DNA of 59,841 nt, the filler included, from Dugesia japonica (Eukaryota): NCBI GenBank assembly GCA_001938525.1. It is 4 parts of 4 records of this genome, joined end to end, with 100 filler letters (N's around TTAATTAATTAA, not from the genome) between each part and the next. Parts side by side here need not be neighbours in the genome. Positions count along the whole stretch, not along the records: positions 27,573 to 36,871 come from MQRL01632415.1; positions 36,972 to 45,769 come from MQRL01648336.1; positions 45,870 to 59,841 come from MQRL01614038.1; 1 more part is not named here. One strand, given 5' to 3'. The translations under genes were made by a program, and so were the position numbers. Below, piece after piece: positions 29,571-57,494 of this stretch. The notes under the pieces are model-generated. The model was not told the DNA's origin. It searched no databases and worked only from the letters and a program-made list of their open reading frames with translations. The stretch's first letter is position 1. The number at the start of each line of letters is the position of its first letter.

Positions 29571-29668
29571 GAATTTACCTAACGTCCCTTATTAGGTCTT
29601 CGGTATAGAGCGGTTGACTTCCATCATTTATTTGAAGTACACACTCGTATACCTTTATCTTCGGGTTC
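29571..29668. ncRNA. Conserved structured RNA motif, copy A
   Basis: GAATTT-[ACCTAA/TTAGGT]-CTTC-[GGTATA..TATACC] enclosing GTTG[ACTTC/GAAGT], then GGGTTC. Confidence 0.7.
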
Positions 29669-29735
29669 ATTATCTTATTTACAAAATAAATTAACAACAT
29701 ACTATCATCTATTATTAAGATTTATTTTTATCTAA

Positions 29736-30097
29736 CTACATGTAATCTAGGGCACCAGGGTCTAACCACTGGATAGGCTCTCCAAACATGAAACTAAATG
29801 CTGCTTCGTCGTCGTCGCTATTCCATCGCGTCAATGTCTGTTGCTCAAGGCGGTGAGCTAAATCAGCAATGTACTGCTGAAGGAATTCGATTTTGTGTCT
29901 AACGATTTGTTTGGTGTTTTCCACCAATTCACCTTGTTTTTAATTGATAANATCTAATTTTTTAATTAAATGACTCCTCTAAATTAGATGACGTAACAAT
30001 GCCCACTCATTTTGTCGTTTAAAATTGCGCTTGAGTAGTAATTTCTGAATACATCAATGACAACGACGGAGACTATTAGGTAACAGAATTCTCGGCA
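29736..30097 (-). pseudogene. Cassette A ORF4, unassigned helical protein ending WLDPGALDYM
   Basis: Acceptor TTTTCAG|TG CCG; internal stops; stop followed by AATAAA; homologous to 33677-34048. Confidence 0.75.
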
Positions 30098-30257
30098 CTG
30101 AAAAGAAATAGACAAGTAAAAGTTACTCAAAACCTATCATAGGTATTTCAATTATTCAAATTATTATAAATGAAAGTGTCAGGATGGATATCATTCATTG
30201 ATTATAACTAAAATATTTTATTTCATACATAAACAAGAGCATAACACACTATGGCCG

Positions 30258-30607
30258 TTAAGTTTGAGTCGACTTATCCACCATCAATGGTTCAAGTTGC
30301 ATGCGTGTTCTCAATTCTAAGACATCTGCGACCAGTTTATTTTCACGGTCATGGAGGGACTGGACGATCTCAGCAAAAGACTCTAGTTGGCTTTTCCAGA
30401 GTCGCTCTTGCGAATGAGAAGCCTCGGCTTCCTTGCGAAACGCGATACATTTGTTATTGTAGCGTTTTACCTTGCTCTCGGCAGCAGCTGTGTCGTCTTC
30501 CCATCGGCGTTTATCTAACTGATATAAGTTCCAAGTCATAGAGATTTCATCGCTTCTTTCTCTCATCTTCTTCGTTGGTACAACAGAGCGACTTAGAGAA
30601 GAATGCA
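30258..30607 (-). CDS. Cassette A ORF3, unassigned coiled-coil protein ending VDKSTQT
   Basis: Acceptor TTTTCTAG|TG CAT; open 116 codons; homologous to 34160-34480. Confidence 0.7.
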
Positions 30608-30763
30608 CTAGAAAAGTAAAATAAACTCAATGACCTCGGAATTTTACATACCAAGCGTTTTACTTGTATTTAAGAAAGGATAAGTTATTTTAACGATTAT
30701 CTAAAGTAAGCAATTTAATGAATCGACACAAAACAGTAAAATAATAATACAATGAGACTTTTA

Positions 30764-31165
30764 TTATAAACTACATAAAGGACGCCTTAACTTATTCTCT
30801 GAGCCTCTTTTTCGGTCCAATATATTATCGATAAACTCTCCCAGTCCAGAGAAAGATGGCAAGTGTGAAGTAGATATCAGAACTACAGACGGACCCTTAC
30901 GCCACTCTCTTACTGTATACAAATCGCCATTACTATCTGGAGAGGTAATTGTATCAGCATGATACACCTCACGAGCTTGATTGTGACAGCACCAATCATA
31001 ATAGGCCTGACGCTCAGTGGCGTCCCAGTGCTTTTCATCATTCTCTTCCTCGGTGATTAGATTGGATCGATCTACAAGACTAACAGCGTCTCTATTGTAT
31101 GGGTTCTTGTATCGCTTGAAAATAGTTCGGCATGTCTTGCCGTTCAGTAATAGCTCCCACTTCCA
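30764..31165 (-). CDS. Cassette A ORF2, unassigned ~133-aa protein
   Basis: Acceptor TTTTCAG|TGG; open frame; N-terminus KW......RTIFKRYK shared with copy B; AATAAA overlaps the stop. Confidence 0.6.
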   Translation of the reverse strand, partial: WKWELLLNGKTCRTIFKRYKNPYNRDAVSLVDRSNLITEEENDEKHWDATERQAYYDWCCHNQAREVYHADTITSPDSNGDLYTVREWRKGPSVVLISTSHLPSFSGLGEFIDNILDRKRGSENKLRRPLCSL

Positions 31166-31252
31166 CTGAAAATTCAAATTAGTATAGATTATTAAGGTCG
31201 AAAAAAGTAAAACATATTAAAAAAGGATTGAGAGTAATTTTATTTAAACCTA

Positions 31253-31485
31253 TTAAACACTAGGATTAGATGAATGTATTGACGTATCTGAATCCAAATC
31301 AACGATGTGTTTCAAAAGGAACATCTCGAAAAAGTGCTGTAAATCGAATTCATCGGGGTGTTCAATTTATCCTTGTGATAGGATATGGGCTTATAATTGC
31401 TACAGACGGGCTTTACGTCTTTCTTTTCGAATTCCTCTTAAATTGTTCATCAGAATATCGGGCATGGTGGTGGGAAGTTGAAACC
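31253..31485 (-). pseudogene. Cassette A ORF1, unassigned protein
   Basis: MPDIL..RL*QL*AHILSQG*IEHPDEFDLQHF aligns with copy B RLRQLITHFLTRGKIEHPD*TDLQCFAEMF. Confidence 0.7.
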
Positions 31486-32012
31486 CTGAATAATAATTTC
31501 TTGGATAAATGAAATTATTGACTGCCTATACCAAATGTTTAAGACCCTATTTATCATAAATAAACTGACATCAACACCAATATTAACAAAACAATGATAA
31601 AGGTAACTGCAATGATACAAGCACCAATGGGAATAGTAGCAGTAATATTAATGGTCTGATTTGTAAAATTATTGATGAAAATATTAGAGCAATTAATCGT
31701 ACTACTAAATAAGGACTTTAATAATGATCAAAACAGTAACGAAATTAATGACGGAGAAGCTATAAAGATACTAATAATATAGTAATAAAGATGGTACTAA
31801 AAAAAGCAATGGAATTATTAGCAATAGTGATAATAATCATAATGTAATAAAGATAATATTAATAGAAATTAATGGAAGTACTAATAAAAATAATAATGAT
31901 ATTGTTGGGGTTTTACCCTAGGTGGGTTGATTTCTTATATGATTAAATCTGGAGGGGTTGAACTTTATATAAAATTAAGTCTAGGGTAATTGAACAGGTA
32001 AAACCCCGCGAT

Positions 32013-32110
32013 GAATTTGAATCTGGTATCCCCCAAAAAATCCAGATCTTCGGAATGAAGCCGTTGACTAGTAACTTGAGTACACACTCGCACTCCTTTG
32101 GTTCGGGTTN
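32013..32110. ncRNA. Conserved structured RNA motif, copy C
   Basis: GAATTT-[ATCTGG/CCAGAT]-CTTC-[GGAATG/CACTCC]..GTTG[ACT/AGT]..GGGTT. Confidence 0.7.
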
Positions 32111-32575
32111 GTTTTACATGATACTCGCTCGATTTACTTATCACAATTAGCCTTTACAATTATTCACTTATAATTTTCCGTTTTGTGGGGTGTTTCTTAA
32201 TTCGGTCACTCTATATTTGATTATAATCTTAAAAGCTATATTATCAATTCGGAAAAACAAAAGAATTTGTAAGTGAAAAATATATTATATGATTTAAATT
32301 TCACTTGGTGTACAATAACCTAACAATTAGCATAATTAAAAAAACTAACGTAACCTGGATCCCGATCCGGAGTAAGCACAAGAGCATAACATCCATTCCA
32401 TTCGTGTTCAATAGTGACTCCCGAGCTACTCCGTAATAATAAGTCATAGCAATCCAGTCGGAAATCGTTGCATCATCAATCGAATCGCATAAATAATCAC
32501 CTTTTGTGTTAATTTCGTTTTAATTTCCGTATTTCCTTGATAAAAAGTGTATATGTTTTGTGAAAATTACACCGG

Positions 32576-32716
32576 TATTTATACCAGTTTCTTTTCACAC
32601 CCCCATTCCTTTCATTGGTTATTTGAAATCGTACGATTTTTCTGACGCTTTCATTGGCTTGAACGTCACGTGAGTTCTTTTTATTGGTAGTTATTTTAAG
32701 ATTCCAAAATTATTGG
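32576..32716 (-). promoter_or_regulatory. Pol II promoter: four CCAAT boxes + E-box + TATA
   Basis: ATTGG at 32614, 32653, 32683 and 32712; TCACGTGA; TATAAATA (-) at 32583-32576. Confidence 0.6.
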
Positions 32717-33499
32717 TCAATCTTCAAAACCTTATAGCTTTTTTCTGGATCTTGCTACGACTTTCTAACCATTATTTTTGAATTCTCCGATTTTTCTTGA
32801 CCAGAATCTTTTTAATTGTTAATTTTATTCACCATAGGAAGTTGCCTTTTTTTCCATATTTCACAAAATATTTAATTTTCTTTTAAAATTATATTGTTTT
32901 AATTTGTTCGATTTATTTTATTTAAATAAATAAATTATTTATTTTATTTTATTCCAAAATTTTAATTCGATGTCCATTTATTTGTTTTCTGATCCGAAAT
33001 TAATTTAATTCTGCTGTTTTCTTTCACTAATTAATTCATTTAATTTATTTTCTGTAAGTTGATTATTTCCTTTGACTTTCTTTCTTTTATTTATTGAATT
33101 ATTTTCTTCCGTTTTTTTCTCTTCCAACATTTTTTTTCTTCTTTCGTAACTCACTAGGTTACGGATCATTTCCCATATTTAGTTCCTTTATTTCGGTTTT
33201 TCTTCAATTATTCCTTTCGGTAACTGGTCTAGCTCCTTCATTTGTCTGTGTTCTTCGTTTTTTTTGTGACATCCTTTCAAATTTCAGGTGTACCTAATCG
33301 CTGGTTTATTTTCCATTCTCAAGTGTTTGACCCCAACAATATTATAAATACAAAATCAATGGAATTACTAACTAAATAATAAAAGTAATACTGATAATAG
33401 TAAGTATCATAATAATAATATTAATAGTGTTGGGGTTCCACCTGAGTTGGGTGAAGGGAGCGTGGCTGGGGAAAAACAGCCCTCAGGGAACCCTTTCAA

Positions 33500-33599
33500 G
33501 AATTTAACCTAACGCCACTAAGTTAGGACTTCAACGTATAGCGGTTGACCTCTTGCTTCATGGGAGGTGCCCACCCATGCGCTTTTTGGATTTGGATTC
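33500..33599. ncRNA. Conserved structured RNA motif, copy B
   Basis: GAATTT-[CCTAAC/GTTAGG]-CTTC-[AACGTA/TGCGCT]..GTTG[ACCTC/GAGGT]..GGATTC. Confidence 0.7.
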
Positions 33600-33676
33600 A
33601 TTATTTTTACCCATTAATCTGAAGTTATTAAATGTTAGAATGAGCCAAACATGGTAACCTTTATTTTATATAATAG

Positions 33677-34048
33677 CTACATAAGATCCAATGCACCCGG
33701 GTCAAACCACTGGGCCGGATCTGTTGTTGAAAAATTGAAAGATGCGGAATCATCATTGGATCCAAGTGGGATTACCGAGTTGGCGTGAGAGGTCCGAGAT
33801 ATACTGCTTCAGGAAATCGATTTTCCGCTGTTTTAGTAATCTGGTTTCTTCTTCCAGAGTTTTGGTTTGGATTGCCAACTCACTCTGTTTCCTAACCACT
33901 AGATTTAGTTTCTTTATTAATTCATTCCTTTGGTCAAGGTGCTTAAGTAGAGCACTGTCGGCCTTTCGCTTAAAATGTCTCTCTATGAAAAGACGGCGCA
34001 TGATTCGATGGCATCGACGTAAATTTTCAGGAAAGGTGATTCGAGGCA
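33677..34048 (-). pseudogene. Cassette B ORF4 (ends WFDPGALDLM after one frameshift)
   Basis: TTTTAG|TG CCT; PRI..P..LRRCH; KIDFLKQYISDL; stop followed by AATAAA. Confidence 0.75.
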
Positions 34049-34159
34049 CTAAAATAAATTACATTAGTAACTAGGTAACAAAAGTTGTGAAACACTACAG
34101 CAATAACTACATTCATGAGAATGATTAAATAATATTTTTATTCAAGAAAACGTGGGTTG

Positions 34160-34554
34160 TCATGTCCGTGAGGTTTGAGGGCTTTTCTCGATCATTAACG
34201 GCTCGAGAGGTATCTTCTTCTTGAGGCTTAAGACATCCCCAACCAGGTTATTTTCTCGGCCATGGCTAGACCGGATAATTTCCGCGAAAGACTCAACTTG
34301 TTTCTTCCGCGCCCGTTCCTGTGTTTGGGAGGCTTCGGCGTCCTTTTTGTACATTACACACTTTTCCGGTATCGAAGCACTTTACTATTCGCCGTGGCTA
34401 TCTCTGCCTTCCAGCAACGCTTTGCAAGGTGATAGACGTCCCAAGTTATTTTTTGGTCCTCACTGGTATCTCTCATCTTTTTTATCGTTTTATATCTCTT
34501 AAACACGGTGCGTCCGGAATTAATATCGATACTCCCTTCCCATTTATATTCCAT
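34160..34554 (-). pseudogene. Cassette B fused ORF2/ORF3
   Basis: MEYKW..RTVFKRYK joined directly to KKMR..ESFAEII..LEPLMIEKSPQT; one frameshift. Confidence 0.75.
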
Positions 34555-34657
34555 CTATAAAAATAAACATATTTAACATGATATTTACAAAATTGTTTCA
34601 ATAACAAAGAAATAAGACATAAGATTTATTCTGCACCAGCTAATATAACACGTAATT

Positions 34658-34847
34658 CTACTTATTATTCTTCATCCAAGTCTAGTTTATTGTCGTGTTG
34701 AAACATCTCGGCGAAACATTGGAGATCGGTTTAGTCCGGGTGTTCAATTTTACCACGAGTCAAAAAATGGGTTATCAGCTGTCTTAAACGAGTGGTCTGG
34801 CGTTGCTTCTTTATCAATCTCAGGGCATTTCGCAACCTTCTCGGCAT
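34658..34847 (-). pseudogene. Cassette B ORF1
   Basis: MPRRLRNALRLIKKQRQTTRLRQLITHFLTRGKIEHPD*TDLQCFAEMF..DLDEENNK*, then AATAAA. Confidence 0.7.
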
Positions 34848-36502
34848 TAGCTAAGGAAAAATAACTAGTTATAGATAGTAAATTCATGGGTTAGTTCTCC
34901 TGAATTATTTAACGGGGAATTATTAGTAATAATGACACTCCTTGTTTGGACATGCGGGGGGCCATAATTGAGAGGTGCAACCTGGTTAGTATGCCATCCG
35001 ACCCATGAGTATGTAATAATGGGGTGGAGTAATAACTCGAAAGAGGAAAAATGGGGTTATTGATAATATGATTCAACCGTTTATATATATTAATCAAGAT
35101 AATCGTGCCAGTATGCTCAGTAGTACTGACGGGAATCGTAACGTTAACTACGAAATTCTCATCATATAGATAATACTAATAATACCAATAATCAGGTTGA
35201 TGATAATAATGATAATAGTAATAACAACAATAATAATAATACAATAAGAATAATAATACTAAGAGTAATAATAATAATGATACCATTACCAAAGTTAATA
35301 ATAGTATTAGCAATAATATTCATAATAATAATAAATTGAATATTACTAACAAAATAGAACTAATCTTATAAGTCGATCCTAGTGACAATGATAACAACTA
35401 AATGCGATAAAATCATTAACTATAGTAGTTGGGACGAGAATCGGGGTGTGAAATAATAAATAGACTCTGGCAACAATGATGCCAGTTAGCGTCGCGCAAC
35501 TCAGGTAAATGAGATCGACATTCATTAAGGACAAATATCTGGAGTAACAATAATTCTACTGCTGGTAAATATCCCATATGACTAATCTTGTGTAAATATG
35601 TAGAAATAACCCAATATACCGCTTCTCAANNNNNNNNNNNNNNNNNNNNNNNNNNNNNNNNNNNNNGTATTTTTGATTTAGAATACTTCCACTTTTGACT
35701 CCAATTACTACTAACGAGGTCAAGTAAAGGAATCTATGAGTAGTACTAAGAATGTTTGTGATTAGTGTGCTGAGCATATTAATCTCATCATAACAAATTA
35801 GATACAACACAAAAATTTGATTGGCATTATTAGTCGTTGAATCATGGGATAGTGAAAATGAGCATTGCGCAGGCCACATACACATACAGAACTGTTAACT
35901 GTAACAGCCCGAGTTGTCAATATCAAAAAATTGATTATATCACTTCTCAACGATTTCTATCTAGAGGTGATTTGAACTAGTTCTGGTTTAGTTACAGAGT
36001 GTAATAAAAAGGAGGCAGTCATTACCAACAAATGTCACTCAACTTATATCAGTCATCTGAAATTGTTAAATGATAATTAACAAAATTTTAAAAGTTATAT
36101 TTCAATATACATTTCCATATTTATTGAACGAAATTATTGAACAAAAAGAAAAAATATTTTTACTTTTCGTGAAATGAATTAATTGATTGACGATTCTGCA
36201 ACGAGATGAGTATCTAACAATAATTCTCGATTATCAAATTTTTCTTCCCTGATTCTGATTTCCTGAGTTTTCTTTCGTTCAGCTGCGGCTACAATTATTT
36301 TTTCTTTTACTATAAAATGAATAATCGATGAAAAACTCTTTTACAAACAATTATCCGTTTACGTAGTAGTTTCAAATTTTTTGGGATACCTGATAGTAAT
36401 TAGCAGACGATATTTTTCCACAAATTTGACTGTATCCTGAACACTAGTTAATGAGTAAAAAAGTGACATGAATTGCTTAAAATCAGGGGGGTTTAAATAT
36501 CG

Positions 36503-36693
36503 TTTTATAAGACACCCTGACCTGTTCGGCATTGGCTACTTATTTTTAGTTTAAGCCTTCCGTTCTTGATTGGTTTTGGTGCCAATTTTCTGTAATTTTT
36601 TCAGAGTTTTAGAACTCTAATTGGCAGTTATTTTTAAAACCTCATGTGATCGATGGTGCTTTGTCTTATTTTTATTTTCTGAATCCTTATTGG
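36503..36693 (-). promoter_or_regulatory. Second CCAAT-array + TATA promoter
   Basis: ATTGG at 36531, 36569, 36620 and 36689; TATAAAA (-) at 36509-36503; a decayed ORF starts ~36468 (-). Confidence 0.45.
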
Positions 36694-36871
36694 CCAAATC
36701 CTTGGATCCAGGTAGCACCCTTCTGAGTGAAGGTATGATTTTTCAATTATAAAATTTAGATGCGCTGCCCTTCATTCTTGTTGAATTTTTTCTCGCTGAA
36801 CTCCTGTGATTTCCTGGAGCCAAGTTATTCTCATGAAATGAATTGCGGCCTAATTTTAATTTATTTTAACC

Positions 36872-36971
36872 NNNNNNNNNNNNNNNNNNNNNNNNNNNNN
36901 NNNNNNNNNNNNNNNTTAATTAATTAANNNNNNNNNNNNNNNNNNNNNNNNNNNNNNNNNNNNNNNNNNNN
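36872..36971. other. Artificial contig-join linker
   Basis: 44N-TTAATTAATTAA-44N. Confidence 0.95.
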
Positions 36972-38560: not shown

Positions 38561-39119
38561 TTATTTATATATATTTAATTACTAAATGTTGAAGTCATAC
38601 TTGTACATCTAATAAAAAAATAAACTACTTGATTTTTTGTAATTCTTTGGGAATTCATTAGAAATTCAAACAAATTTAACTGTGAAGTAATTTGACTGTA
38701 AAGTTTGAATTCATAAAAATATATGTATTAAGGCTATAATTAATTAACAAATTAATCAAATAATTTAAATAATATATGTGTGTGTATTTATATTTGTATG
38801 GATTTCATTAAATTACATGATTCGTTCAATATTTTTTATGTTTTGATCAAACTTTTTAATTTAATGAAATCTCAAATACGATCAATGGTTAAGTCCAATA
38901 CTTATTTTCGCAATAATTGTAATTTGAAAAATATGTATTGATATTTATATTTGTGTCCCATAATTCTTTTCTTAAACTATTCGATAAGATAATTAATGTT
39001 CCATTTTATGTAATAATAAGAATTGAAATTACTATGCGTATCATAATTTAACCTATGCTATGTCAATTTAATTCTGTATAATCAACCTAATAACTTTAAT
39101 TTTAAAAATATTTATTTAG

Positions 39120-39579
39120 ATTTTGAAAACTCTATTGATAATATGACTACTTCTACAAATGGTGTTTTCATTGGAAAAGCCCTAACCAGCGCTAGAGTTT
39201 TATTCAACAGTGATACAAGAACAAACGCCACAAAAACTGTGATAATAATTATTGATAGTGAAATTACAGATAGAAATGTGACATTTAAAGAGGCCGAACT
39301 TTTGAAAAAATCAGGAATCAAAGTGTTTACAATTGGTTTAACAGGAAAGACCTCTGAGTAAATTGTTTCATTCTGTTTATTATCAATTGTCAAATGTTCC
39401 ATTTTTATACAGTTCAGATTTGAAATTGGTTGCCTCGCCTGATAAAGCATTATTCGTTGACAACTTCAGCAATTTACAAAAGTATAACGCCTATATATCA
39501 TCTGAGTTATGTGATGGTAAGAATTTTAGTAATTATAGATTATATATTAAAAACGAAAATAAAATTAAAATGCTATTAA

Positions 39580-39775: not shown

Positions 39776-42700
39776 CAGTAGTAATGTTATAACTGGTGTT
39801 TATATTAACATTTTAATTTAGTTATTCGTGGAACAAATAAAGAATGCAGTTCTAAACAGTTAGACATTATGTTTGCTCTTGATTCCTCTAGTAGTCTTGG
39901 TGAAACAGAATGGCAATATGAAGTAGAATTTGTAGAAAGAATAGTAAGAGATATGGACATTAGTGAAGGTTTNACTAGAGTAGGCGTAGTAACATTCAAC
40001 ACTTTAGCAAAAAAAGAATTTGGACTGGAACAATATTATGATAAATACGGTAAATAGTTGGTTGTAAATGGTAATAGCATAATTTTCACAAACTGTATTC
40101 CCATTTTAATTTCCCATTTAGATTATACCATTAATTATGGAAATTTATTTTCTGAGAAAATATTGATGTCAAATATTAATAATTATTCTCATAAATAAAA
40201 AATCGAATATAAATTCTTTAAACTACAGCCATATTTATTTGCCTGTAAAACTATATACAGGCGTCACTCGTATAACACAGTTAATTCGTACCATGTTATA
40301 CAAAACTTTTTATTTAATTATTTAAACTAAGATATAATAAAGAATAATATAATTTAAACTTAGATATAACATAAATCAACGCAATGTGTGCCGTGTTGTA
40401 TCGAAACCTTGCTTTGTGTTATATCGAAACCGTCTTATAATAAACATTAAAATAATATAAATCAGGTCAATGTGTACCGTATTATATCGACATTAAGTCT
40501 TAAGGTGTAAAATTTTATGATAGCCGAAATTTTGTTCCAAATATGTATATAAAAAGTAAGTTAACTTTAACAAGTTTTGATTTTAAAAAATATGAAATTC
40601 AACATTATGATGAAATACAAAAATGAAAAATACAACAAAAAACGTGTACAATTTACATGAATAACCTCTTATTTCAACCAACAGCTTATTACGATCCCGA
40701 AAATTATTTTTTATCATCTCTCTCATCAAATATTAAAACTGATCTATTTTTTCCTCAAAGTTGGTTGAAACTCCTCTTCACTAGTTATTTCTCCATTATT
40801 ACAAAAGTTATCTGACGTAGTTTCAATTATCAATCTGTTTCAATTTTACGATTCGGTTAAAATTTCTCTATAAAAAGCTAAAGAACTTTGCAATTCTGCT
40901 TTAAATTTTCCGCTACGTACTACTGAAGGATATTTTTCAACGAAAAGATTTTCTTTTTTTTTAGCTAAAGCAATTCTTTTTTGCAGATCAATTAAATTTA
41001 AATGATGAACCAATATAATTGTTACAAATGTTTTTCAAATCATCGGCGTAGTGGATGTATTTACTAGTTCAATTAGTTCTTCCTCATTCAAAGTTTGTTC
41101 TTCAAAAGGTTCACGAACATTATCATCATATTTGACAATCAGTTCCCTTCGAAATTAGAAGCAACCAATTTTATTCTGTTATATTCTGCTTTTTCAAATG
41201 AGGCAAAGTTTTCTTTCTTGACCATTTTTGGGTAACAAAGATTTCCAGCACACATGAAATGTAGACTTTTTTAATTCATTGCAAGTCAAAGCTATAATTG
41301 CAACACCATCTAAAATAGAAAACTCTTTCCAAGCTTGAGTAAGCGTTACATTTTTATCGTTTTCTCGTCTTTCGAAAATTTTTCGGCATACTAGTATGAT
41401 GTAGTATACCTTCAGTGTTTCAATGATCTTTTGATCTCATGGTGGGAAGAATGATGTACAATTTGGTGGATTAAACATAATTTTTACATTAGGATGATTC
41501 AACTCTTTACTGTGGCTACCTGCGTTATCAATGAGAAATAAAACTTTAAAGCTGAAATGTTTTTTCTTCCAAAACGTTTTTACTTCTGGAATAAAACAAT
41601 TTTTAAACCAGTCTTCAAACAAATTTGCATCATCCAGCATTTTTTTATTTGCTTGCCAGAAGACTGGTAGATGATACTTAGGTTTTTCATTGCTCTGTAC
41701 AATTTATTATCATTGGTTTTACTACAAAATTTTCCGATAGGTTACTACACATGTGAAGAGTAACAAGATCTTTGTTGAGCTTATAACCTAGTTCGTGCTT
41801 CTCAATTTTTGAAATAAAAGTTTAAGACGACAGCTTCTTCCAGTATAAAGCTGTTTAATTGGCTTTGAAATTTGATCTGTAAAATATTCTCCATCTTCCA
41901 TAGTTTATGGGCAGCCTCTACATCTGCTGAAGCTTGCTCTCTTTGAAATTTTAAATTCCGCCAAGAAAATTCATCTTTCTTTAAATGTGTGTAAATCCAG
42001 AGTGCTTTTTGTTTGATAATATTCGTACTCAAAGAGATTTTTTTATCTTATAAATCTTCTACCCATATCATAAGAGCCTGTTCTATGTTTACGATATTTA
42101 TATCTCGTTTGCGGAAAGACGCTTCGCCCTTTGCGAACAACCACCGGCAACATATTTCTAATTTCTCTTTCATTTTATAATATAGTTCGAAATAGTAGCT
42201 TCATTAAAACTTAATGATTTTGCAATCGATGAACTCTTTTCTCCAAATTTGATGCGATCTAAAATTTTGATTTCTTCTTCAAATGAAATAAATTTTGCTT
42301 CTTGATCTTGTTAGAGATTATCTAAATTTAGTGTTAAAAATTAGATTTTTTATAAATGTTACAACTTAATTTATTATTGATTAATTTTTTATCGAACGCA
42401 ATTGAAAGATAATCCCATGGAATACATATTCCATTTCTTGAAATCATGTTACATTAATCTGAAGTCTTATACCGTGTAATATTGAAACCGTGTTATGCGA
42501 GGGACACCTGTATTCCATATTCTAGTAATATTGATGTTAAGTCTAAAGGTATAATAAAGTTTGTTATGATTTCGTTTAATTTCGGTCTATTTTTGATAGA
42601 TTATTTGTTTTGTCATTATAAATTGTTTTTAATAAATTTCTGTACAATCTGAGAATAAAGTTGTAAAGATTTTCTTTTACATATTTTAGTTATTTATTTC

Positions 42701-45489: not shown

Positions 45490-47190
45490 CAGGCATATTA
45501 TATGAAGGTTTTCGTTTAAAACTGCAGGCCATATTGCAACCGTAAAGCTTCTTCTAATCTGGATATCCGGTCATCATATACATTAAGTCTTTTCTGCCAG
45601 TCTTTTGGTACTGACCGATACTTATCTTGTTCCACATGTGTCATTAATTGGTTTTCATTTAAAATATCAGGCGTTTCTATTGTTTCCTCTTCCTTTGTTA
45701 CGTGTAACATACACAACTTGTTTGATCTTTCTATTATTATAGCTAAGTCTTCACTACTTGCTTTAAATCNNNNNNNNNNNNNNNNNNNNNNNNNNNNNNN
45801 NNNNNNNNNNNNNTTAATTAATTAANNNNNNNNNNNNNNNNNNNNNNNNNNNNNNNNNNNNNNNNNNNNTACTGGTAGTTCTATCAACCTTTTACTTAGC
45901 TTGTAAAAATATTCTTTATTTTCATCTGTCCACTGAACTTTGTTTTCTTTCTTTAACATCGAACTGAGAGGTTCTGATAAATTTGCATAATTTTTTATGA
46001 ATCGCCTATAATAAATACAAAACCCTAAAAATGTTTGAAGTTCTTTTCAACATTGAGGAGTATCCCATTTTTGGATTGCCATTATCTTATCAGGATCTGT
46101 TGTGATTCCATTTTTAGTTATTATATGTCCGAGATATTGTATTTTTTCCTGTAAAAATTTACATTTATTTGGTGCTAATTTAAGTCCACCTTCTCTTATT
46201 CTTTTTAATATTCGATCCAGTCTTTCATTGTGCTCTTCTACTGTTTTACCGAATATTAAAACACCGTCTAAATATATTGCACACTTATTCCTATTTTCAT
46301 TTCGCAATACAATATTCATAAGCCGCTAAAATGTCGCTGGTGATGAGCATAATCCAAACGGCATTCTGGCAAATTCGTCTTATTCAAACGTTGTGCTAAA
46401 TGCAGATATTTCCTGATCTTGTTTAGCTATCGGCACTTGGTGATATCCACTCGAAAGGTCTAGAGTAGAAAAATAGTTAGCTCCAGCAATACTGTCAAAT
46501 ATTTCCCCTAATAATCGTATCAGAAATATTGGTCGGTTTGTTTTAGAATTCAGTACACTGCATTCAATACACATACGGTTATCACCGTTTTTATTTTTCA
46601 CCACTGCAGTTGAAAGTTTCCACGGTTTACAACATCTGCATCTACCAAATCTTTTACCATATATTCTACTTCTTCTTTAAGTCCTTTTGATATTCTCCGT
46701 TGTTTGAAAGCAGTTGGTCTGCCATCGGTTGTTTCTATTTTATGTTCAGTCTTTGCGGCTTTGCCCACATCCATCTTATTTCGACTAAATACATCTTTAT
46801 TTCTTTCAAGTATTGCTAATGTTTTGACTATATCATAGTAATTGTTTGCAGCTTTCATATCATTCCTAATTGTCTGCAGTATATTGTCTGTAATTTCTTC
46901 TTCTGTTCTTTGTTTCTCAGTGGACAATTGTCTGAGTGATAATTTTTCAAACACTTCTTCATTTTGCTTAAACTCTTCTAAATATCCGAGTGTAGTTCCG
47001 GTGTGTAAAGTTTACATCTTCATTCTAACATATATACTCTTACCTACATGTATCAATTATTATCGATTGTAATTACATCTGTCAATAAATGTTTCCGCAC
47101 GGCCATTTTCTCTTTATCTCCAGTGAAAATTCATTCTTTTCTCGTGTCATAAGTAATTTTCTGATCTGAGTGGTCCATTTTCATGCCTCT
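45490..47190 (-). mobile_element. Gypsy gag/pol fragments (spanning a linker)
   Basis: [68 protein letters not shown]. Confidence 0.9.
45770..45869. other. Artificial contig-join linker
   Basis: 44N-TTAATTAATTAA-44N. Confidence 0.95.
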
Positions 47191-48759: not shown

Positions 48760-51560
48760 CAATAAAACTTACGTTTTGTAATAAAAGTATCATAACTTAT
48801 AAACATATCTTTATTCTTGGACATAACTACATAATTCATTTGATTAACATTATTATTCTTTGTCATAGATACAATATTTTTGGTAATATATACACCAGCC
48901 ATATTCTATAAATAATAATTTTGCTTACCAAGTCCTATTTAATGATCCGTTAGTACAGACGATTCTACTCGAACTCTTCTAACCATCAATTTTGTATCAA
49001 GTAATACAAATTTAGGTTCTCCAGTTGCATTCATTCTTTTTGCTGCTCTCTTCATTCGAATGTACACATTTACCCCTGGAATAAGATATTTTTGTTGATC
49101 CATGAAATCCAGTTATAAAGAATCTCATAAAGACAACGTTTTTGATAATTTAATTGATCTTTGTATATCATCTTTATCTCCCCAAACACTTGCTGCCAGA
49201 CCAATTTTCTTACTATCTCCATTATAATTAAAAAATATTTTAATTATAGCCTTTTGAATATAAATTTCATTACTCCATTTGATCTTGGTATTATCAAATG
49301 AAAGGACAACATCTTTAAACCGAGTGTGAAACATAAAGTTGTTCTGTACTACTTCAGACTTTTCACCCAAGTCTTTTCCAAATTTGTCAACAAATATTTC
49401 TTGTACATACAATAAAGTGCCATTCAAATCCAGATAATCAATTTGCGATTAACGTATAAAAATCTCTACATTATTTGTACTTTCAGAAATTGAATTCATT
49501 AGAAACACATATTCAAATGATCTATATTTAATAACACCTTGATGAGTTGGACGATGAAAATACATAGTTCGGTTTTTCGGATTATAGAATTAAATAATAT
49601 CTTTATTTATTGAAGTGGCAACTGGTTAATACATTGGATTCTTGATTATAATCTAAGCTACTTGATCCTTTAGATAATTCTCCAACCATACAGATTTCAA
49701 CAAAGAAACATTAACATTACTAACAATTATAGGTCCAACAATATTACTATAGATAAAAGTTTGATGAGGATTAGTGATTAATTTTGGATATTTAACTCCA
49801 AGGAATTCAATGTGGACTATATTTCTATAATCACGAGTATAAGTTTGTCTGTCTAATCTTAAAGATTTTGCCAAGAAACTGTCGAACGTAACACTTTTAA
49901 TAATTTCTAACAACGAAAATCGGAATGGTTTATCATTTTTTATAGTAAGTGTTTTGAACACAGACTTGCACATTTTTGTGATGAAACGACTAAATTGATC
50001 CAAATTTGATGTAATATTCGTTTTGTAAAGATATGAATTTATTATTTTCTATTGAAAACACTAATTTCATTTTCATAACATCAATCGAATCATCGTCTTT
50101 AAAGTCTTGATATTGTATGGTAGAATCCTATTCTATATTATTCCTTAAAGTATTAAATCCAAATCTTTTGGCATCTTATAAATTTCCAAATATTAAAACA
50201 TAAGCATGATGTATTAATGTAATTAACAATGACCTTTTATCAATTATCTCAAAGTCAACATCATGAACCAACAATATCTTTTTGTTATTGATTATGATTT
50301 CTACATTAATCTCATAATCATCACTTGTTACATATTTGATATATGATTTTTTATATATATAAAGGCAGAATATATAAAGGAAGAATTTATCAAGCTACTT
50401 CTCATTGTTCATTCAAGTAAAAAGGATTTTTAAGTGTAACAATGCTTTATTATCGGTATGAAAATGTAGACAACTATTACTCGGTAATATTGTATACAAA
50501 TTATTCTTTTTGTTAATTTTTCTTCTGCNNNNNNNNNNNNNNNNNNNNNNNNNNNNNNNNNNNNNNNNNNNNNNNNNNNNNNNNNNNNNNNNNNNNNNNN
50601 NNNNNNNNNNNNNNNNNNNNNNNNNNNNNNNNNNNNNNNNNNNNNNNNNNNNNNNNNNNNNNNNNNNNNNNNNNNNTGAAACTATATTTGCGGAAAAACT
50701 GAACTATGGATTTATGATCGTCTAAATCCTCAAGATGCTATAAAATATGGATCATTTAAAGATGTGTTTCTAATAAATTCAATTTCTGAAAGTAGAAGTA
50801 ATGTAAATTCTTTTAAATTGTTCGCAAACTGATTACCATTTATCTAATTTGATTTTTCATATCCATGCCTCATTACATATAATTGTTTATATTTAAACAC
50901 TTCATCACTCCAATCACTATCGAAATTCTTGATGAATAGGGAAGCTGATATCTTTGAGATTCTAATATCATCATCAACTTTATATTTTGGTTTCTTGATT
51001 ACTTTAAGTTGTTGTCTCAAAAGCCATCATTTCATTGAACCATCAGATGATACATCAACGGGTCTTGCTTAATTTAATCCTCTGTGACTTATATAATTAC
51101 AACTATCAATCACTTTCGGTAATAAATGTATTTAGGTTTCATTACCAGTATGCACAAAGTACTTTTTCAATGCATCTCTCAATATTCAATTAAATCTTTC
51201 AACGTTTGCAGCTTTTTATTGTGAAAATACAGAATAATGATCAATCTTGAGATGATAAATAATATTTTTGTCATTTGAATTATAAAATTATTTCCCTAAA
51301 TCGGTTTGCAAATTATCTGGATGTCCCACTTTAAACATTATTTTGACTGTAGCTTCCATCTCATTAGCAGATTTTGATTTTATAGGTACCTCTCTTGCAA
51401 ATATGCTAATTACATCAACACATGTTAAAATATACTTGTATCTCTTATTAATTATCGAATAAAGTATCGATTTCATCAAATCCATTTGCCATAAAAAATT
51501 AATACCAAATGTTTTATATGGTCTTTTTGGGAAGTTTTTCAACATTGGATTGTTCAGACT
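48760..51560 (-). mobile_element. Polinton/adintovirus-like segment: rve integrase, penton-like and major-capsid-like genes, decayed
   Basis: Integrase LWQMDL..YKYILTCVDV..PIKSKS..LQTDLGK..VERFN, and PKYKVDDDIRISK. Penton-like FIYSNIVGPIIVSNVNVSLL. MCP-like DFMDQQKYLIPGVNVYIRMKR. Confidence 0.8.
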
Positions 51561-51809
51561 GTTCTATTCCTTCTTGTGTTATTATTTGTATGAGGAAAAA
51601 ATGCTATTCGCAAAATATATTCTTTTAATTCGTTTTTAAGATGTTATAATGAAAATCNGTACATACATGTGATTTTAAATAATATAGTTTAAATTAGTGT
51701 TGAATACTTTAATAAATTAAACTGTCAAACAAAAAATCGATTTCAATAAAGCGAAAGGTTTGTTCAGTGTCATAGCAGTCATATCACACAACATTTATGT
51801 TCATATCTC

Positions 51810-54261
51810 AAGAGATTCCAAACTGAATATTCAAATATTTGATATTCGAATATATTTATGTGTTTATTGACTATTTGATATTCGAATATTTGGAAAAAAT
51901 ATTCGAATATTAATGAAAGATACAAAATTATAAATTGTAAAAGTTCAATCAAAGTAAGCTTTGAAAAAACTTTCAAAAAATCGCATTTTGAATTTTCGTA
52001 ATGTGTTTTGTGTGACATTATTTTAGTTGGCTTTTGAAAAACAGTTCAAATAAGTAATTGTTATTGTTATTAAAAATTTTAATGATTAAAATAAATCGTA
52101 ATCAATTGTTACATTAATTTCTTTTGGATATTTCTTATATTTGAAAGGTAAATTGAAGCTTGTTAGATTATCTTACATAATTACATATTTAAATTGTTAG
52201 CCATATCCAAAAATCCGAAGTGTGGAAGTTTTTTAAGAAAGACGAAAAAAAATTGATGAAGCCACACGTAGTACCTGTAACGCAAACGTAGGGTATAAAA
52301 GTTCAACCACCCTATGATTAATCATTTGAGGTTACGACACAACATATTTATATCTAAATCTGTTTCAAGTGAAAATTATGAAAAAAATAATGTTCCGCAG
52401 AAAAAGCCAAAAATTGAAACAAGTACCATTTTGAACTTTGAAAAAAACAGTCTTTAAATTAAATATTGTCAAACATNNNNNNNNNNNNNNNNNNNNNNNN
52501 NNNNNNNNNNNNNNNNNNNNNNNNNNNNNNNNNNNNNNNNNNNNNNNNNNNNNNNNNNNNNNNNNNNNNNNNNNNNNNNNNNNNNNNNNNNNAAAATGCA
52601 TCATCAGCGTTTATAAAGAAAAATGTATTGAACTGCGAAATAAATTTGAAAAATTTAAAAAACATATCCTAAATTGGCTATTACTGTGGATAAATGAACA
52701 GATTGCACCATCTTACGTTATGTAAATGTAACAGTTTGTGTACTTAGAATAGAATCAAATAAAGTTGAATGCTATGTACTGGATTTAAAGGAAATAGTTA
52801 AGCAGGAAAATGCAGAAACTATTAATCATTTAGTTNAAGCTAAGCTAGCAAACTTTAGCATTTCTTTAAAAATTGATGTTATTGCATCAAATAACGACGT
52901 AGCAGCTGTAATAAAAAAATACGGCAAAATATTAAATGTTTTAAATCAACTTTGCCATAATCATGCACTCCATTTGGCCGTAATGGACTGTTTTTTATGT
53001 ACCAATAAATTCTACAACTAATGAAGCGTTGGACTTGAACGATATCGAATTTTGTTGATAATGGAATTGAAGATGATGTAGAAAGAAGAAGTATGATTAA
53101 AAGAAGGATGAATGAAAGAAGAGATCCAGTTGATGACACTTATAAAATATTTACATGGTAGAAATGTACCAAGTTTCAACAATTATTNTCAATATTCTTC
53201 AGAAAATGCAGCAATTTCATTTGCTGAAAATATTATGGAACAAATATATCCAAGAATATTCATTGAAAAAAGTAATAATGATGTTTCCACATCATCTTCA
53301 ACTGATTATGTAATATAATTATCACTACAAGCTGGTTTACGAAAGGAATTGCAACATGCAATAAGTTCCATTATAGAAACANNNNNNNNNNNNNNNNNNN
53401 NNNNNNNNNNNNNNNNNNNNNNNNNNNNNNNTTGATGACACTTATAAAATATTTACATGGTAGAAATGTACCAAGTTTCAACAATTATTTTCAATATTCT
53501 TCAGAGAATGCAGCAATTTCATTTGCTGAAAATATTAATGAACAAATATATCCAAGACTATTCATTGAAAAAAGTAATAATGATGTTTCCACATCATCTT
53601 CAACTGATGATGTAATATAATTATCACTACAAGCTGGTTTACGAAAGGAATTGCAACATGCAATAAGTTCCATTATAGAAACATGTAATGTTAATAATGA
53701 AACAAATAAAAATATAATATTCAAAAAACGGTCGGCAACGCTGGATATCTTATATAATGCATTGATTACTATACGACCTACCTCAACAGCATCAGAAAGA
53801 GTGTTTTCAACAGCAGGTGCAATAAAATCAAAAAGGAGATCAAAGTTAAATTTAGAAACTTTCAATTCTCTTCTATTTTAAAATATATNNNNNNNNNNNN
53901 NNNNNNNNNNNNNNNNNNNNNNNNNNNNNNNNNNNNNNNNNNNNNNNNNNNNNNNNNNNNNNNNNNNNNNNNNNCTAAAACTTCCCGTTTCAGATTCAAC
54001 CATCCTTCGTATCACTGATTAATTACTAACTGATACAAATCAGAAAATCAGTTTTGACGTTAGAATTAGCAGATATTTCTATAACAAAAGCAATAAAAAT
54101 AATTAACCGTTTTTTTAATAATTTTATTACTATAATATTTATTTTTGATAATGTTTTTTAAAGTTTTAGTAAATTATTGAATATTCGAATAATCGAATAT
54201 TTAAAAACATTTTCTATTCGCTATTCAAATAGTTGAAAACCTTGAATAGTTGGAATGGCTA
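51810..54261 (+). mobile_element. hAT transposon (BED finger, hATC), internally deleted and gapped
   Basis: SEVWKFF..C..NHLRLRH; PTSTASERVFSTAG..KRRSKL. TCGAATAT subterminal repeats. Termini ..ATTCCAA with an 8-bp TSD CATATCTC/AATATCTC. Confidence 0.85.
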
Positions 54262-54269
54262 AATATCTC

Positions 54270-54663
54270 CCAAAAATGTGATATTAACACGGTTGTTGTA
54301 ATCAAGTACCATACTGCAAAGTACTTTGTTTATGCAATTGTAGATTTTATTCTTATTTCCAGAAGTTGAATACATTATGCCAACCCTTGAGTGTATTATT
54401 GCCGCAAAGAAGGTTATCAAATACTTTGGAATATTGATTCCACATCTGAATCGAAATTCTTGGCGGATCTCTTCTTTCTCTACTTTGTCTTCTAATAAAG
54501 TTATCCTCAATATAATCACATTTTACTTCGATTTCTCTGTATGCTGGATTTGCAGTGAGAATTTCAAAGATATCTATTTCAATATGTTGTAGAATAAATT
54601 TCTGCCAATTCAAAATCAATTGCAATCGAAAGTGTTTCCAATTCTGCATTCAAATTGAGAAAT
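54270..54663 (-). mobile_element. MULE transposase C-terminal fragment
   Basis: IDFELAE; PPRISIQMWN..NNTLKGWHNVFN (cf. RTNN.LEGWHN.FN). Confidence 0.7.
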
Positions 54664-54871
54664 NNNNNNNNNNNNNNNNNNNNNNNNNNNNNNNNNNNNN
54701 NNNNNNNNNNNNNNNNNNNNNNNNNNNNNNNNNNNNNNNNNNNNNNNNNNNNNNNNNNNNNNNNNNNNNNNNNNNNNNNNNNNNNNNNNNNNNNNNNNNN
54801 NNNNNNNNNNNNNNNNNNNNNNNNNNNNNNNNNNNNNNNNNNNNNNNNNNNNNNNNNNNNNNNNNNNNNNN

Positions 54872-55600
54872 ATTTTTGTAACATTCCTTTGTGTGGTGTT
54901 CTTTCTTGTTGCATCTGGAACAACTAACTTTGGTACAGTCTCTACTTAAGTAGATCCACAAGAATAGCACTTTTTTCCTTCCTTGAAAACTTCTGCTTGC
55001 ATGACCTATTTTGTTACAGGTCTAACACGTGATTTCTCGTCTTTCATTGTTTCTGTTCTGTTGTATTCCTTCATTATGACTTTAGTTGAGATTTCTTTGC
55101 TCTTGACTTCTGCAAACTGCATCTCTGTAGTTACGAATTACATTTATTTTTTCAGTTTTTATTTCGTCTTTTAGGTCTTCCCACTTTTTAATTGCTTTAC
55201 ATTCATCTTCTTTTTCTATTTTTCCTGGCTGAATCTTATATTTAATCTTTCTATCATTGCAACTATTTATTATTAATTCCTTTGTTAAGTCATCTTTGTT
55301 CCATTTATGAGACATACCTTTTTACCAATCCTTCAATCTTCTTATAAATATTTATATGCTCTTCATTCCATCGATAATCTAGAGCTTCCTCCATATCTTT
55401 AATCATTGTTGATGGCCTAAAGAAAGCTTTTCTGAATCTTTATTCAAATCCCAATGCATTGTCTTCATTTGCATAGATTTCCAGTAAATTTATGAAACCA
55501 ATCGCAACCAAATTCATGACTTTTCTTTATTCCGTATAGATTACAAAATTTCGTTGTCTTCAGAATAATTTTTTTCTACATCAACGCCCATTTTAAAAAT
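54872..55600 (-). mobile_element. Gypsy gag remnant
   Basis: CYSCGS..SRDC and CSRCNKKEHHTKEC zinc knuckles. Confidence 0.65.
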
Positions 55601-57201
55601 TCTAGGGTGCATGGCTTCCTTTAGCAAATCCCATGAAAATTCATGATGATAATAATTTTTTTCAAATANNATATTATTACATTTTTTAAATTGATTGAAT
55701 TTATCAATATTTGAAAGCATGTATTATAATGTTTAAACATTTTATTTTGGGTCGTCTAACAGACAAGTACCAAATTTTCATAAAAGAAATAATAGTAAAA
55801 AAATTGTCATAAGTAGAATCAAAAATCGTTGTTTTAGTTTTATTATATACATATATTAATATTACACTAGAAAAACTTTAAATTATTATAAAGTTATTTA
55901 TGGTTTTTTTTTCAAAAACAAAAGATAATTTATTATTTATAATTTATTAATAACATTTTATTTAAAAATACGGAAACGACGCGAGGCCTTGTGTGGTCAC
56001 ATCGTTTTTACCGGCATCATGTCGGCCCTGTTTATATCATTATAAATATGAATATATTGTCCGTTTTCCAGATACCCAAACTATGATTAATTCTTTATGC
56101 TGTATGCTTTTCTGCTTGTTCATTTAATTATTACATCTTGTCACCCGGTGTTCCAGTCCAACATCTAGATCATATTAATATTTATTTTTATACAAGTAAA
56201 AAGATAAATGAAATATTAGTAATAGTAGGAAATTGAAAATAATAAATAGGAAGGGTAAATAAATTAGTAATGTGATTATTAAATCAAACAAAAATTAACA
56301 TATTAAATAATGGTATATGAAAAACTTAGTAACTTCAACGTAAATTTATTGTAAATAGTAACCTGCAAATGTTACCTGCATTGAATTTTTAAATGTTTTT
56401 TGTTAATAACCAACGATTAATCAGATAAATATTCGACGAATTCATTACTTACTACATTACTTAAAGCTGTGCAAGACAAATTCAGACGATCAGTTGAATA
56501 AGTCAAATATTCTTGATGAATCTATTATTATCATTTATTAACATTCATTATTAGTAATCTATTGATTATCTCACTGTTCTAAAGATCTACAAAAAGTTAC
56601 AAATCTTATGCATCTATAAATTAAGTTGTTAAAGAATAATTAAGACAAATTAAGATAAAAATGAATTGAAACAATTTTTTTAGAGCATATGAAAAATGAA
56701 ATTTTCTTGATTCCAAAGAAAATTAGCATTTGCTTAGTTAAGAATTTCTGATTCTACTAAGCTCAGTTTATCAGACAAATTTATTTCGTGTTGATTAGAA
56801 ACCAATAAAACAATAATAACAAAATTTAGAGATTGAAAGTTTCGTTTTAAAAAGCAAGAAAATAATATCTTGTTATTATTAATTATAATTCATGTTTATT
56901 TGCCAATTTTATCTAGGCAATTATTTATTTTGACTATTTATCTAGTTTTATTGACTTGTTTTACTCAATCAATATCCATTAATGACAACTTAAATGATTC
57001 TGGATTTATTATTTGTTATTAATTTGTTTAATGAATTTTTAATTAAAATTGTAATTATTTATTTGTAATAATTGAATAATCAATTTATCAAAATCTTTAA
57101 GCTTTTGGCATAATATTATTAAATAAAATAATAATAATGGCAATAACAGTAATAATAATAAAAACAATAATAATAATTAAGAATAGTATAATAACATTAA
57201 T

Positions 57202-57494
57202 AATAGGGGTTTCACCTATACAGCTCAGTTTTAAGTTATGCCTAGGGTAATGCATATAGTGAAACTCAGCGATGAATTTAATTTGGAGTCCACATTCTAG
57301 ATCTTCAGAATAGAGTTGTTGACTCTCAACCCGTAGTTCGAGTGCATGCTCATATTCCTTTGGTTTGGATTCTTACTGTTCTAATACTCACTTTGGTCCT
57401 CATTAACTAATTGCGTGAATTACTTTTACAATCTGATATTGGTCGACAACCTCGCCATCTTTATTATCATCTCGTTAATCGTTTGAAGATTCCT
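57202..57494. mobile_element. Terminus of LTR-like family copy D, including the RNA motif (57274-57372)
   Basis: GGGGTTTCAC..GTGAAACT hairpin, then GCGATGAATTT..CTTC..GTTGACTC..GAGT..CCTTTGGTTTGGATTC; closest to copy C; cut by a gap. Confidence 0.75.

Follow-up and report, generated by a model that had tools for sequence, protein, structure and literature searches.

A conserved, covarying motif of about 100 bases, predicted to fold as RNA, near the ends of LTR-like repeats in Dugesia japonica

Repeat elements, their ends and the associated gene

The window, i.e., the whole stretch of 59,841 nucleotides of Dugesia japonica DNA that was analyzed, contains four repeat copies (A to D) carrying a motif of about 100 bases. 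Their features are as follows, with a strand named where one applies.

29520..31577, element A; left end lost and start approximate, right end probably at TGACATCAACA, similar to TGACCCCAACA of B
29571..29668, motif copy A; P2 hairpin 29577-29597, P3/P4 hairpin 29602-29653 with a 6x5 internal loop
29736..31474, minus strand, decayed multi-exon gene in A; stop 29736-29738, AATAAA 29721-29726
31580..31902, plus strand, AAT-rich tract, decayed, next to A and B; AAT 33 versus ATT 12
31903..33338, element B, 1436 bp; start TGTTGGGGT, end ACCCCAACA, inverted ends of 9 bp
31906..32008, terminal hairpin of B; closing stem of 11-12 bp, alternative pairing of 9-11 bp (31913 with 31989)
32013..32110, motif copy B; P2 32021-32047, P3/P4 32052-32096, final base N
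33339-33427, 35170-35350 and 57110-57201, further AAT-rich tracts; AAT versus ATT 12/3, 30/5 and 17/4
33428..33494, element C, terminus with its terminal hairpin
33500..33599, motif copy C; P2 33507-33528, P3/P4 33533-33583
33677..34856, minus strand, decayed multi-exon gene in C, homologous to that of A; stop 33677-33679, AATAAA 33660-33665
57206..57267, element D, eroded terminus with a terminal hairpin of 9 bp; the element meets an assembly gap at 57495
57274..57372, motif copy D; P2 57281-57302, P3/P4 57307-57358

Judged from its sequence, element B resembles a solo LTR, with TG...CA ends, a short inverted repeat and ATAT on either side, which is a target duplication of 4 bp within the 4-6 bp looked for. 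The left end of element C is the same as that of B and its right end lies somewhere about 35,100-35,170, and the right end of A is similar to that of B. The motif-bearing units look like solo LTRs, two of them with a spliced gene, and the AAT-rich tracts are their probable insertion targets. In the contigs of run X1, element B is abundant over its whole length (summed depth 31,000-270,000) and the stretch 31577-31783 is near single-copy depth. The window shows no full-length element, second LTR, PBS, PPT or linked pol, and the covariance model placed no motif close to the RT or integrase fragments in it.

The first-pass annotation had placed every copy of the motif within about 110 nt of a TGTTGGGG terminus, described as eroded in A and degenerate in D, and behind a terminal hairpin. 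With distances of 110 nt in B and 72 nt in C, the first statement is correct for these two elements, but D keeps just GGGG at about 57206 and A has lost its end, although contigs of run X1 join a C-type terminus to A-type sequence (joints 33448>29569 and 33455>29525). Likewise, the hairpin is present in B (11-12 bp), C (7-8 bp) and D (9 bp), but in A none of at least 6 bp is found. The motif keeps a fixed position behind the terminal hairpin, at the end of a TG...CA unit flanked by a 4-bp duplication, and it is conserved across families that are otherwise different in sequence.

The homologous genes of A and C differ by 111, 70 and 191 changes at the three codon positions over 288 codons, and the gene, although decayed, is apparently spliced and has been shaped by purifying selection. 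Its product in A is rich in coiled coils and has an Arg/Lys-rich start, and frameshifts and in-frame stops are present. Scanned piecewise, the stop-free exon pieces of this broken gene have no significant match in Pfam; no protein homologues of single exon pieces were found, atlas matches are generic coiled coils only, and there is no splice joint of the gene among the joints listed for the RNA reads. In A and C the gene stops 67-77 nt from the motif, with AATAAA in between. Element B possesses the motif and no alignable gene. Because the motif accompanies elements that have the gene (A, C) as well as one that does not (B), it tracks the terminus and not the gene.

These data bear on two readings that link motif and gene. 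The short distance past the stop codon would suit a 3'-UTR element acting in localisation, stability or translation of the minus-strand gene, which we regard as very improbable, since the AATAAA lies between stop and motif, B retains the motif without the gene, and no SECIS family in Rfam matches the motif. An element controlling export, splicing or polyadenylation (CTE/RRE/RxRE-like), by which unspliced full-length RNA would escape splicing or the poly(A) site of the first LTR, is unlikely too. Its reader might be the Arg-rich coiled-coil protein encoded in the LTR. In favour of such an element, a spliced-looking gene under purifying selection, with an Arg/Lys-rich start, ends so close to the motif in the same unit, and the musD MTE and the MLV PTE are precedents (PMC5767303, in part). 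However, the high-copy type B has the motif and lacks an alignable gene, and the protein is devoid of a Pfam family, a homologue or a specific atlas match; nor do the listed joints of RNA reads include a spliced one.

Predicted fold and covariation

Our own analysis confirms the motif at the four positions, with the coordinates and stems of the first-pass annotation. The pattern GAATTT-N14..34-CTTC-N5..9-AGYNGTTGAC has exactly four matches in the window (29571, 32013, 33500, 57274) and none in 100 shuffles, which demonstrates only the mutual likeness of the copies because the pattern was taken from them. A covariance model of the four copies recovers them at 95-114 bits, the next match in the window scoring 22.7 bits. 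In every copy, CTTC and AG are separated by a spacer of 7 nt. The motif is the sole part common to the four elements; its identity is 0.56-0.68 in all six copy pairs, while the 100 nt beside it on the inner side are at background level (0.47-0.54 versus 0.47-0.50 in shuffles). Copies of the motif differ by indels and stops, and its conservation as a coding sequence was rejected on these grounds.

P2, P3 and P4 covary, as had been claimed. Across the four copies 93.6% of 94 cells are paired, a value reached by none of 500 shuffles, and controls in slid register give 17-42%. Two-sided changes occur in 9 of 24 pairs, which one shuffle in 500 matches. In a hand-registered count, Watson-Crick pairs amount to 41/48 for arms of the same copy versus 79/144 for arms swapped between copies, and the true arm pairing ranks first among the 24 row permutations (41, runner-up 39); the sample behind these figures is four sequences in two clades (A/C and B/D), equivalent to about ten events and short of a formal R-scape test. 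One of the covarying stems includes transversions (UA/AU/CG).

In outline, the long helix and the apical stem are as first described, but in B the former contains an A-C mismatch and the latter is just 3 bp. The near-invariant linkers are kept as well, except that GAATTT and GGRTTC may instead pair with each other as a closing helix. Neither in this putative helix nor in the candidate pseudoknot pairs between loop and tail is two-sided change ever seen across the four copies.

Folded singly, the copies are only slightly more stable than shuffled sequences (z +0.7 to -2.3). This weak folding, the restriction to two clades and the single row permutation that reaches 39 against 41 would fit a motif without function, in which repeat homology and hairpin self-correction by template switching have mimicked compensatory change. 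Such an origin seems improbable in the extreme, given that three separate short stems covary around invariant unpaired linkers at fixed spacing and that the adjacent sequence has decayed to background.

Ginger-like transposons are DNA transposons of the integrase type, and TnpB/Fanzor systems have a characteristic omega-RNA layout. If the units belonged to such transposons, the structure would mark the element end or serve as an RNA scaffold that stops at the border. The TG...CA ends, the duplication of 4 bp and the presence of introns in the gene all fit, the minus-strand order of ORF, structured RNA, element end and variable flank equals the omega-RNA layout, and the four copies are oriented alike with respect to the AAT tracts. 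Nevertheless, this assignment is distinctly improbable: the shared orientation comprises four cases, with a chance of about 1 in 8, the inverted ends measure merely 9 bp, the pieces of the broken gene, scanned piecewise, have no DDE, integrase or RuvC match, and folding with DNA parameters is unremarkable (z -1.2 to +0.1).

Abundance, transcription and strand

In the contigs of run X1, summed depth peaks at the motif, reaching 270,165 in the motif bin of B versus 53,140 and 65,176 in the neighbouring bins, 37,380 in that of C versus 1,342 inward, and 4,476 in that of A versus 104 and 1,335; a single contig piece has a depth of 7-10, and the summed depth is not a copy number. Roughly, the motif is present in 10^4 copies in public contigs of the same species.

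Transcript coverage had been named as a check of the first-pass annotation, and RNA reads do span the motif. Its bin in B is covered in all three RNA runs and is the deepest of 30 bins in run X10, where 94 reads continue before 32036 and 119 behind 32129, so that the motif is read through. Among the read-end pile-ups listed for X10, the only one (33026) is outside the motif, which, with fragmented poly(A) libraries, is a weak test of cleavage ends. Loose poly-T ends at 32912 and 32950 were discarded as low-complexity artefacts, as they are found on both sides.

The first-pass annotation had assigned no strand, and the evidence splits both ways; by a narrow preference we infer that the sense strand is minus rather than plus. 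For minus speak a consensus energy of -17.85 versus -12.35 kcal/mol on plus, the 5 A-C versus 3 G-U cells that P2-P4 show on plus, the A-rich linkers, and a minus-strand AATAAA 55-95 nt inward in three of the four copies. Against this, no AATAAA/ATTAAA lies within 90 nt on the minus strand of B, and at 25% GC hexamers of this kind are frequent. First mates of X10 (128.7 on plus versus 45.7 on minus) would indicate minus-strand RNA if the library is of the dUTP type, which this reading presupposes; the ratio is equal in plain AAT bins (62.3 versus 23.5), and the RNA runs X9 and X13 are shallow. In favour of plus, the closing helix requires U-G/U-A pairs that are workable on plus only, P2 and the terminal hairpin of D contain G-U pairs on plus, and an antisense position of the gene relative to the packaged RNA would more readily account for the retention of introns in a retroelement.

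A functional, selected structure of the motif, which is predicted to fold as RNA, is supported because compensatory changes, conservation above the flanks, the peak in contig depth and transcripts coincide in a sequence that belongs to no Rfam family. The first-pass annotation had proposed a functional cis-RNA; the selected structure lends this partial support, and no choice was made there among ribozyme, export, packaging and priming.

Candidate functions and known systems

The motif matches no Rfam family, so the search that had been proposed does not remove its novelty. In Rfam 15, at E up to 10, no ribozyme was found in motif copies A, B and C or in 281-nt stretches of C, D and A, and the covariance models of twister-sister and hatchet gave no match; weak matches to snoRNAs, a plastid UTR and a Brucella sRNA (E 1-7) were attributed to chance. 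ARAGORN predicts no tRNA genes, Rfam reveals no likeness to 5S or tRNA, and an A/B box pair at a shared place is lacking. Scans of collections that contain little animal DNA yielded nothing credible: 12 metagenome matches, about the number estimated for chance and none with the stems (best 16.4 bits, E 0.13), 0, 0 and 9 viral matches, the nine being two sequence types with open reading frames of which none passes the model, and one prokaryote match that lies inside an open frame and fails the model. No published description of the motif was found in the accessible literature, which included few subscription papers and no repeat-library supplements.

The hammerhead core includes CUGANGA, G12 and U16.1. 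Motif scans and Rfam agree with the earlier statement that hammerhead, HDV-like, twister, pistol and hairpin-ribozyme cores are absent. A CUGANGA/GAAA/UH core was not encountered, the exact CUGANGA occurring within the motif only in D on the minus strand, with no GAAA downstream. Still, the minus-strand order of parts echoes the type III hammerhead, with two hairpins, an open stem and a YYGAAG(A) junction, and size and layout, freely covarying stems, invariant junctions and a possible pseudoknot of 2-4 bp would suit a putative new class of small self-cleaving ribozyme, which, located terminally in the LTRs of a large group of animal retrotransposons with some 10^4 copies, would process element RNA by cutting LTR-to-LTR monomers as plant-retrozyme hammerheads do. 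There is a precedent of an LTR that contains a ribozyme, in elements with 4-bp duplications and solo LTRs (PMC4918200, in part). For the present motif this is quite unlikely and has no positive evidence: G12 is absent, U16.1 is found in two of four copies, 9-11 extra nucleotides precede stem I, Rfam ribozymes are unmatched, poly(A) reads traverse the motif with no listed end pile-up inside it (a weak test), and viral, metagenome and prokaryote scans are without a homologue.

The reading that we favour, tentatively and at a little below even confidence, is that the motif is a cis-acting structure of the full-length RNA of the element, putatively bound by Gag or RT for packaging or priming. It would fold in that RNA beside one end of a high-copy repeat, likely an LTR retrotransposon, and its likely binding partner, Gag or reverse transcriptase of the same element, would thereby package the RNA and start its reverse transcription. 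If minus is the sense strand, the motif would be part of a U5 domain of about 200 nt that follows the AATAAA at the end of the LTR-borne gene and that, in a full element, would immediately precede the primer-binding site. A short pseudoknot might arise from pairing of the C-run of the P2 loop with the GG in the tail, and protein or tertiary contacts may be made at the invariant internal loop (6x5) and the linkers.

The Ty1 5' pseudoknot near the PBS and the musD transport element are also structured cis-RNAs of LTR retrotransposons with possible tertiary pairing (PMC5767303, in part). In contrast to them, the present motif, which has no likeness to them in sequence or in Rfam, is about 100 nt long, lies wholly within the terminal unit and is common to families that differ elsewhere. 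Plant retrozymes likewise have a compact conserved RNA in an LTR-like unit, a 4-bp target duplication and solo copies, but their LTRs measure 300-400 bp (PMC4918200, in part) versus units of 1.4-2.1 kb here (1436 bp in B), which lack the hammerhead core, reside in an animal host and in two copies carry a gene, so that they do not qualify as retrozymes, which are non-coding. The TRIMs Cassandra, Helenus and Ajax possess a conserved block of small-RNA size inside the LTR, as is the case here, and animal Helenus elements have 4-bp duplications; conservation in TRIMs centres on promoter motifs (PMC10886601, in part), whereas that of the present motif, which has no tRNA/5S likeness or consistent A/B box pair, centres on base pairing. 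Burro/GYPSM1, a giant Gypsy element of planarians, is similar by description in its AT-rich animal host, thousands of copies and accessory ORFs, and the portion of its account that was available gives no LTR RNA structure (PMC6431247).

Should the motif act in packaging or priming, it would show how such elements select their own RNA and retain a gene with introns in the terminal unit; if self-cleaving, it would represent a new ribozyme class. LTR sequence usually drifts fast, and to our knowledge conserved RNA folds inside animal Gypsy-type LTRs have rarely been described. A 100-nt fold across families, in thousands of copies, constitutes an unusually deep natural alignment.

Conserved fold and covariation of the motif

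Four copies of the motif, a predicted RNA fold of about 100 nt, were found where the first-pass annotation had placed them, each in an LTR-like unit (element) of the same letter:

29571-29668, copy A
32013-32110, copy B
33500-33599, copy C
57274-57372, copy D

All four copies show the order GAATTT, hairpin P2, CTTC, a 7-nt arm of stem P3, AGYNGTTG and hairpin P4 (AC...GT), followed by a conserved 8-nt stretch, the P3 return arm, a T-rich linker and GGRTTC. Pairwise identity of the motif is 0.56-0.68 for all six copy pairs, the 100 nt next to it are at shuffle level in the same comparison, and the 70 nt preceding it are similar only in A/C and B/D, and weakly in C/D.

The stem covariation claimed earlier is borne out on four sequences from two clades with about 10 events, as both partners have changed in 9 of 24 pairs (1/500 shuffles). 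In the final register 93.6% of 94 cells pair (0/500 shuffles as high), and pairing falls to 17-42% when partners are slid out of place. By hand count, P2 and lower P3 are Watson-Crick in 41/48 cells within copies versus 79/144 across copies, one column being UA, AU and CG among copies; the 78 cells of P2-P4 comprise 68 Watson-Crick, 3 G-U, 5 A-C and 2 other. Single copies fold only modestly. The closing helix (GAATTT with GGRTTC) and the pseudoknot proposed between the C-run of the P2 loop and the tail GG never change on both sides in the four copies, and both are unproven candidate pairings. C occupies position 33517 in 24,790 of 25,326 depth in contigs of the sequencing run X1, showing a C-run in the P2 loop that is kept family-wide. 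We regard the motif as a real, selected and uncatalogued RNA-type fold at the terminus of an abundant LTR-like family; that it has no function is highly improbable.

Elements, coding region and surroundings

31903-33338, element B, with inverted ends of 9 bp (TGTTGGGGT...ACCCCAACA), flanked on either side by ATAT
33428 (start), element C, same end as B
element D, with an eroded end
element A, left end lost, right end B-like, near 31577
31580-31902, 33339-33427, 35170-35350 and 57110-57201, AAT tracts
29736-31474 (A) and 33677-34856 (C), minus strand, multi-exon, coiled-coil-rich gene

In B, C and D a terminal hairpin that covaries starts some 5 nt inward of the element end. The four units are probably solo LTRs; no primer-binding site, polypurine tract or partner LTR is visible. 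All four elements sit within or next to decayed AAT tracts that share one orientation, and three of the elements form one cluster; the elements possibly target such microsatellite tracts. In B the 5' arm of the terminal hairpin can also pair, over 9-11 bp, with a second and partly exclusive partner (31913-31989), possibly forming a switch. The motif is preceded by small internal hairpins whose loops read GGG(A/T)AA, and in B a near-palindromic TATA-like stretch (31964-31981), readable on both strands and absent from C, is found about 40 nt before it.

Six coding blocks with AG acceptors after pyrimidine-rich stretches are common to A and C on the minus strand, and B has no alignable copy. Differences by codon position are 111/70/191 over 288 codons (chi-square p 5e-14); the gene was under past purifying selection, and in both elements stops and frameshifts now interrupt it. 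Its protein pieces match no known family, and it is unusual for a probable retroelement to retain introns. The gene ends 67-77 nt ahead of the motif with AATAAA in between (A, C), an arrangement in which the motif could be taken for a 3'-UTR element; the fold tracks the element terminus and not the gene, and this account is improbable. The third coding block closes with a stop, after which comes another acceptor; this may point to alternative last exons. A weak covariance-model match in the first coding block of A (31286-31362, minus strand; 22.7 bits, E 0.0085) fits just both motif ends, is not kept in C and is probably due to chance.

The window as a whole is AT-rich, gapped eukaryotic DNA with AAT tracts and 21-34% GC per 2 kb. 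The host is probably an animal and, judged by base composition, perhaps a planarian; Schmidtea, according to the available part of its description, has an A/T content above 70% and carries giant Burro elements (PMC11410931).

28187-28800, minus strand, host phosphomannomutase exons (Pfam PMM), beginning about 700 nt from element A
23876-24479, minus strand, host Ccdc124 exon(s)
39047-39358 and 43289-43582, plus strand, two host vWA-domain exons
14189-15223, 45966-47011 and 51291-51563 (minus strand), 41440-41703 and 53621-53878, decayed Gypsy-type RT, integrase, DDE_1 and hAT fragments
19680-21180 and 10770-11080, two degenerate direct-repeat arrays with units of about 150-160 bp and about 90 bp

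An AG acceptor stands immediately before the apparent start codon of the phosphomannomutase exons. In the window, no motif copy lies near the Gypsy-type RT, integrase, DDE_1 or hAT fragments.

Abundance and transcription

Four of 24 listed public runs (X1, X9, X10, X13) were aligned to 29300-35500 at 80% likeness, with copy D outside this range; for X1, possibly the source sample, the kind of data is not on record, and the other three are RNA. Summed contig depth in X1 is 270,165 in the motif bin of B versus 53,140 and 65,176 in adjoining bins, 37,380 versus 1,342 inward in C, and 4,476 versus 104 and 1,335 in A, single pieces having a depth of 7-10. This suggests about 10^4 motif copies, depth not being copy number, as the tool warns.

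The first-pass annotation had made its proposal depend on transcript cover, and RNA reads lie over the motif in 3/3 RNA runs; most are less than 90% alike and therefore derive from other copies. A one-base deletion at 32019 occurs in 97/159 reads of X10, 6/10 of X9 and 6/17 of X13 versus 158/561,493 in X1, and 32390 C>A in 40/44 reads of X10 versus 42/36,643 in X1. Among the variants listed (40 of about 1,290 rows; joints, 15 of 77), those at 32019, 32390, 32394, 33513 and 33522 are common or near-fixed in RNA of three studies and rare in X1 contigs, which suggests that few subfamilies or loci are expressed; part of the effect could come from differences between strains or from the way reads were aligned.

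Strand, proposed function and known RNAs

The minus strand is slightly favored as the sense strand. Its consensus energy is -17.85 versus -12.35 on plus, A-C cells outnumber G-U when read on plus, linkers are A-rich and AATAAA lies upstream in 3/4 copies. First mates of X10 favor plus (128.7 versus 45.7), as expected of minus-strand RNA if the library is dUTP-type, but AAT bins, too, give this ratio. For the plus strand speak the U-G/U-A pairs of the closing helix and the G-U pairs of copy D; introns would also be kept more easily with the gene antisense. In a minus-strand reading the domain would occupy U5 and lie immediately before the primer-binding site; in a plus-strand reading it would form the start of U3, beside the polypurine tract.

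Rfam 15 gives no match at gathering scores in the whole window and chance-level matches only at E up to 10 in the motif regions, in agreement with the earlier description of the motif as unrecognised. ARAGORN finds no tRNA, the motif does not fit the Pol III box patterns, and viral, metagenome and prokaryote collections yield chance matches only. The literature searched holds no description of the motif, subscription papers and repeat libraries being beyond reach. The core patterns of the hammerhead, twister, pistol, hairpin and HDV-like ribozymes fail on the motif, as had been stated earlier. The minus strand has a hammerhead-like order but lacks G12 and stem I geometry. A self-cleaving ribozyme of a new class is rather unlikely. 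In X10, 94 reads continue before 32036 and 119 behind 32129, with no read-end pile-up inside the motif among the matches listed. In the available parts of their descriptions, the plant retrozyme hammerhead (PMC4918200) and the small-RNA blocks found in Cassandra, Helenus and Ajax elements (PMC10886601) are similarly placed, although by the membership tests of each the motif falls outside them.

What is shown of the motif is its structure, position, abundance and transcription. The fold follows the terminus and persists between families, which is what one would predict for a signal that the replication proteins of the element read. Our favored but tentative reading, somewhat short of even, is that it would serve as a packaging or priming signal in full-length element RNA. 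That the motif controls export, or poly(A) addition and splicing, is unlikely, if a little less so than the ribozyme, and a DNA-transposon end or an omega-RNA-like scaffold is slightly less likely than either. As a packaging or priming signal, the motif would act in the manner of the Ty1 pseudoknot or the musD element, as far as the available part of PMC5767303 describes them.
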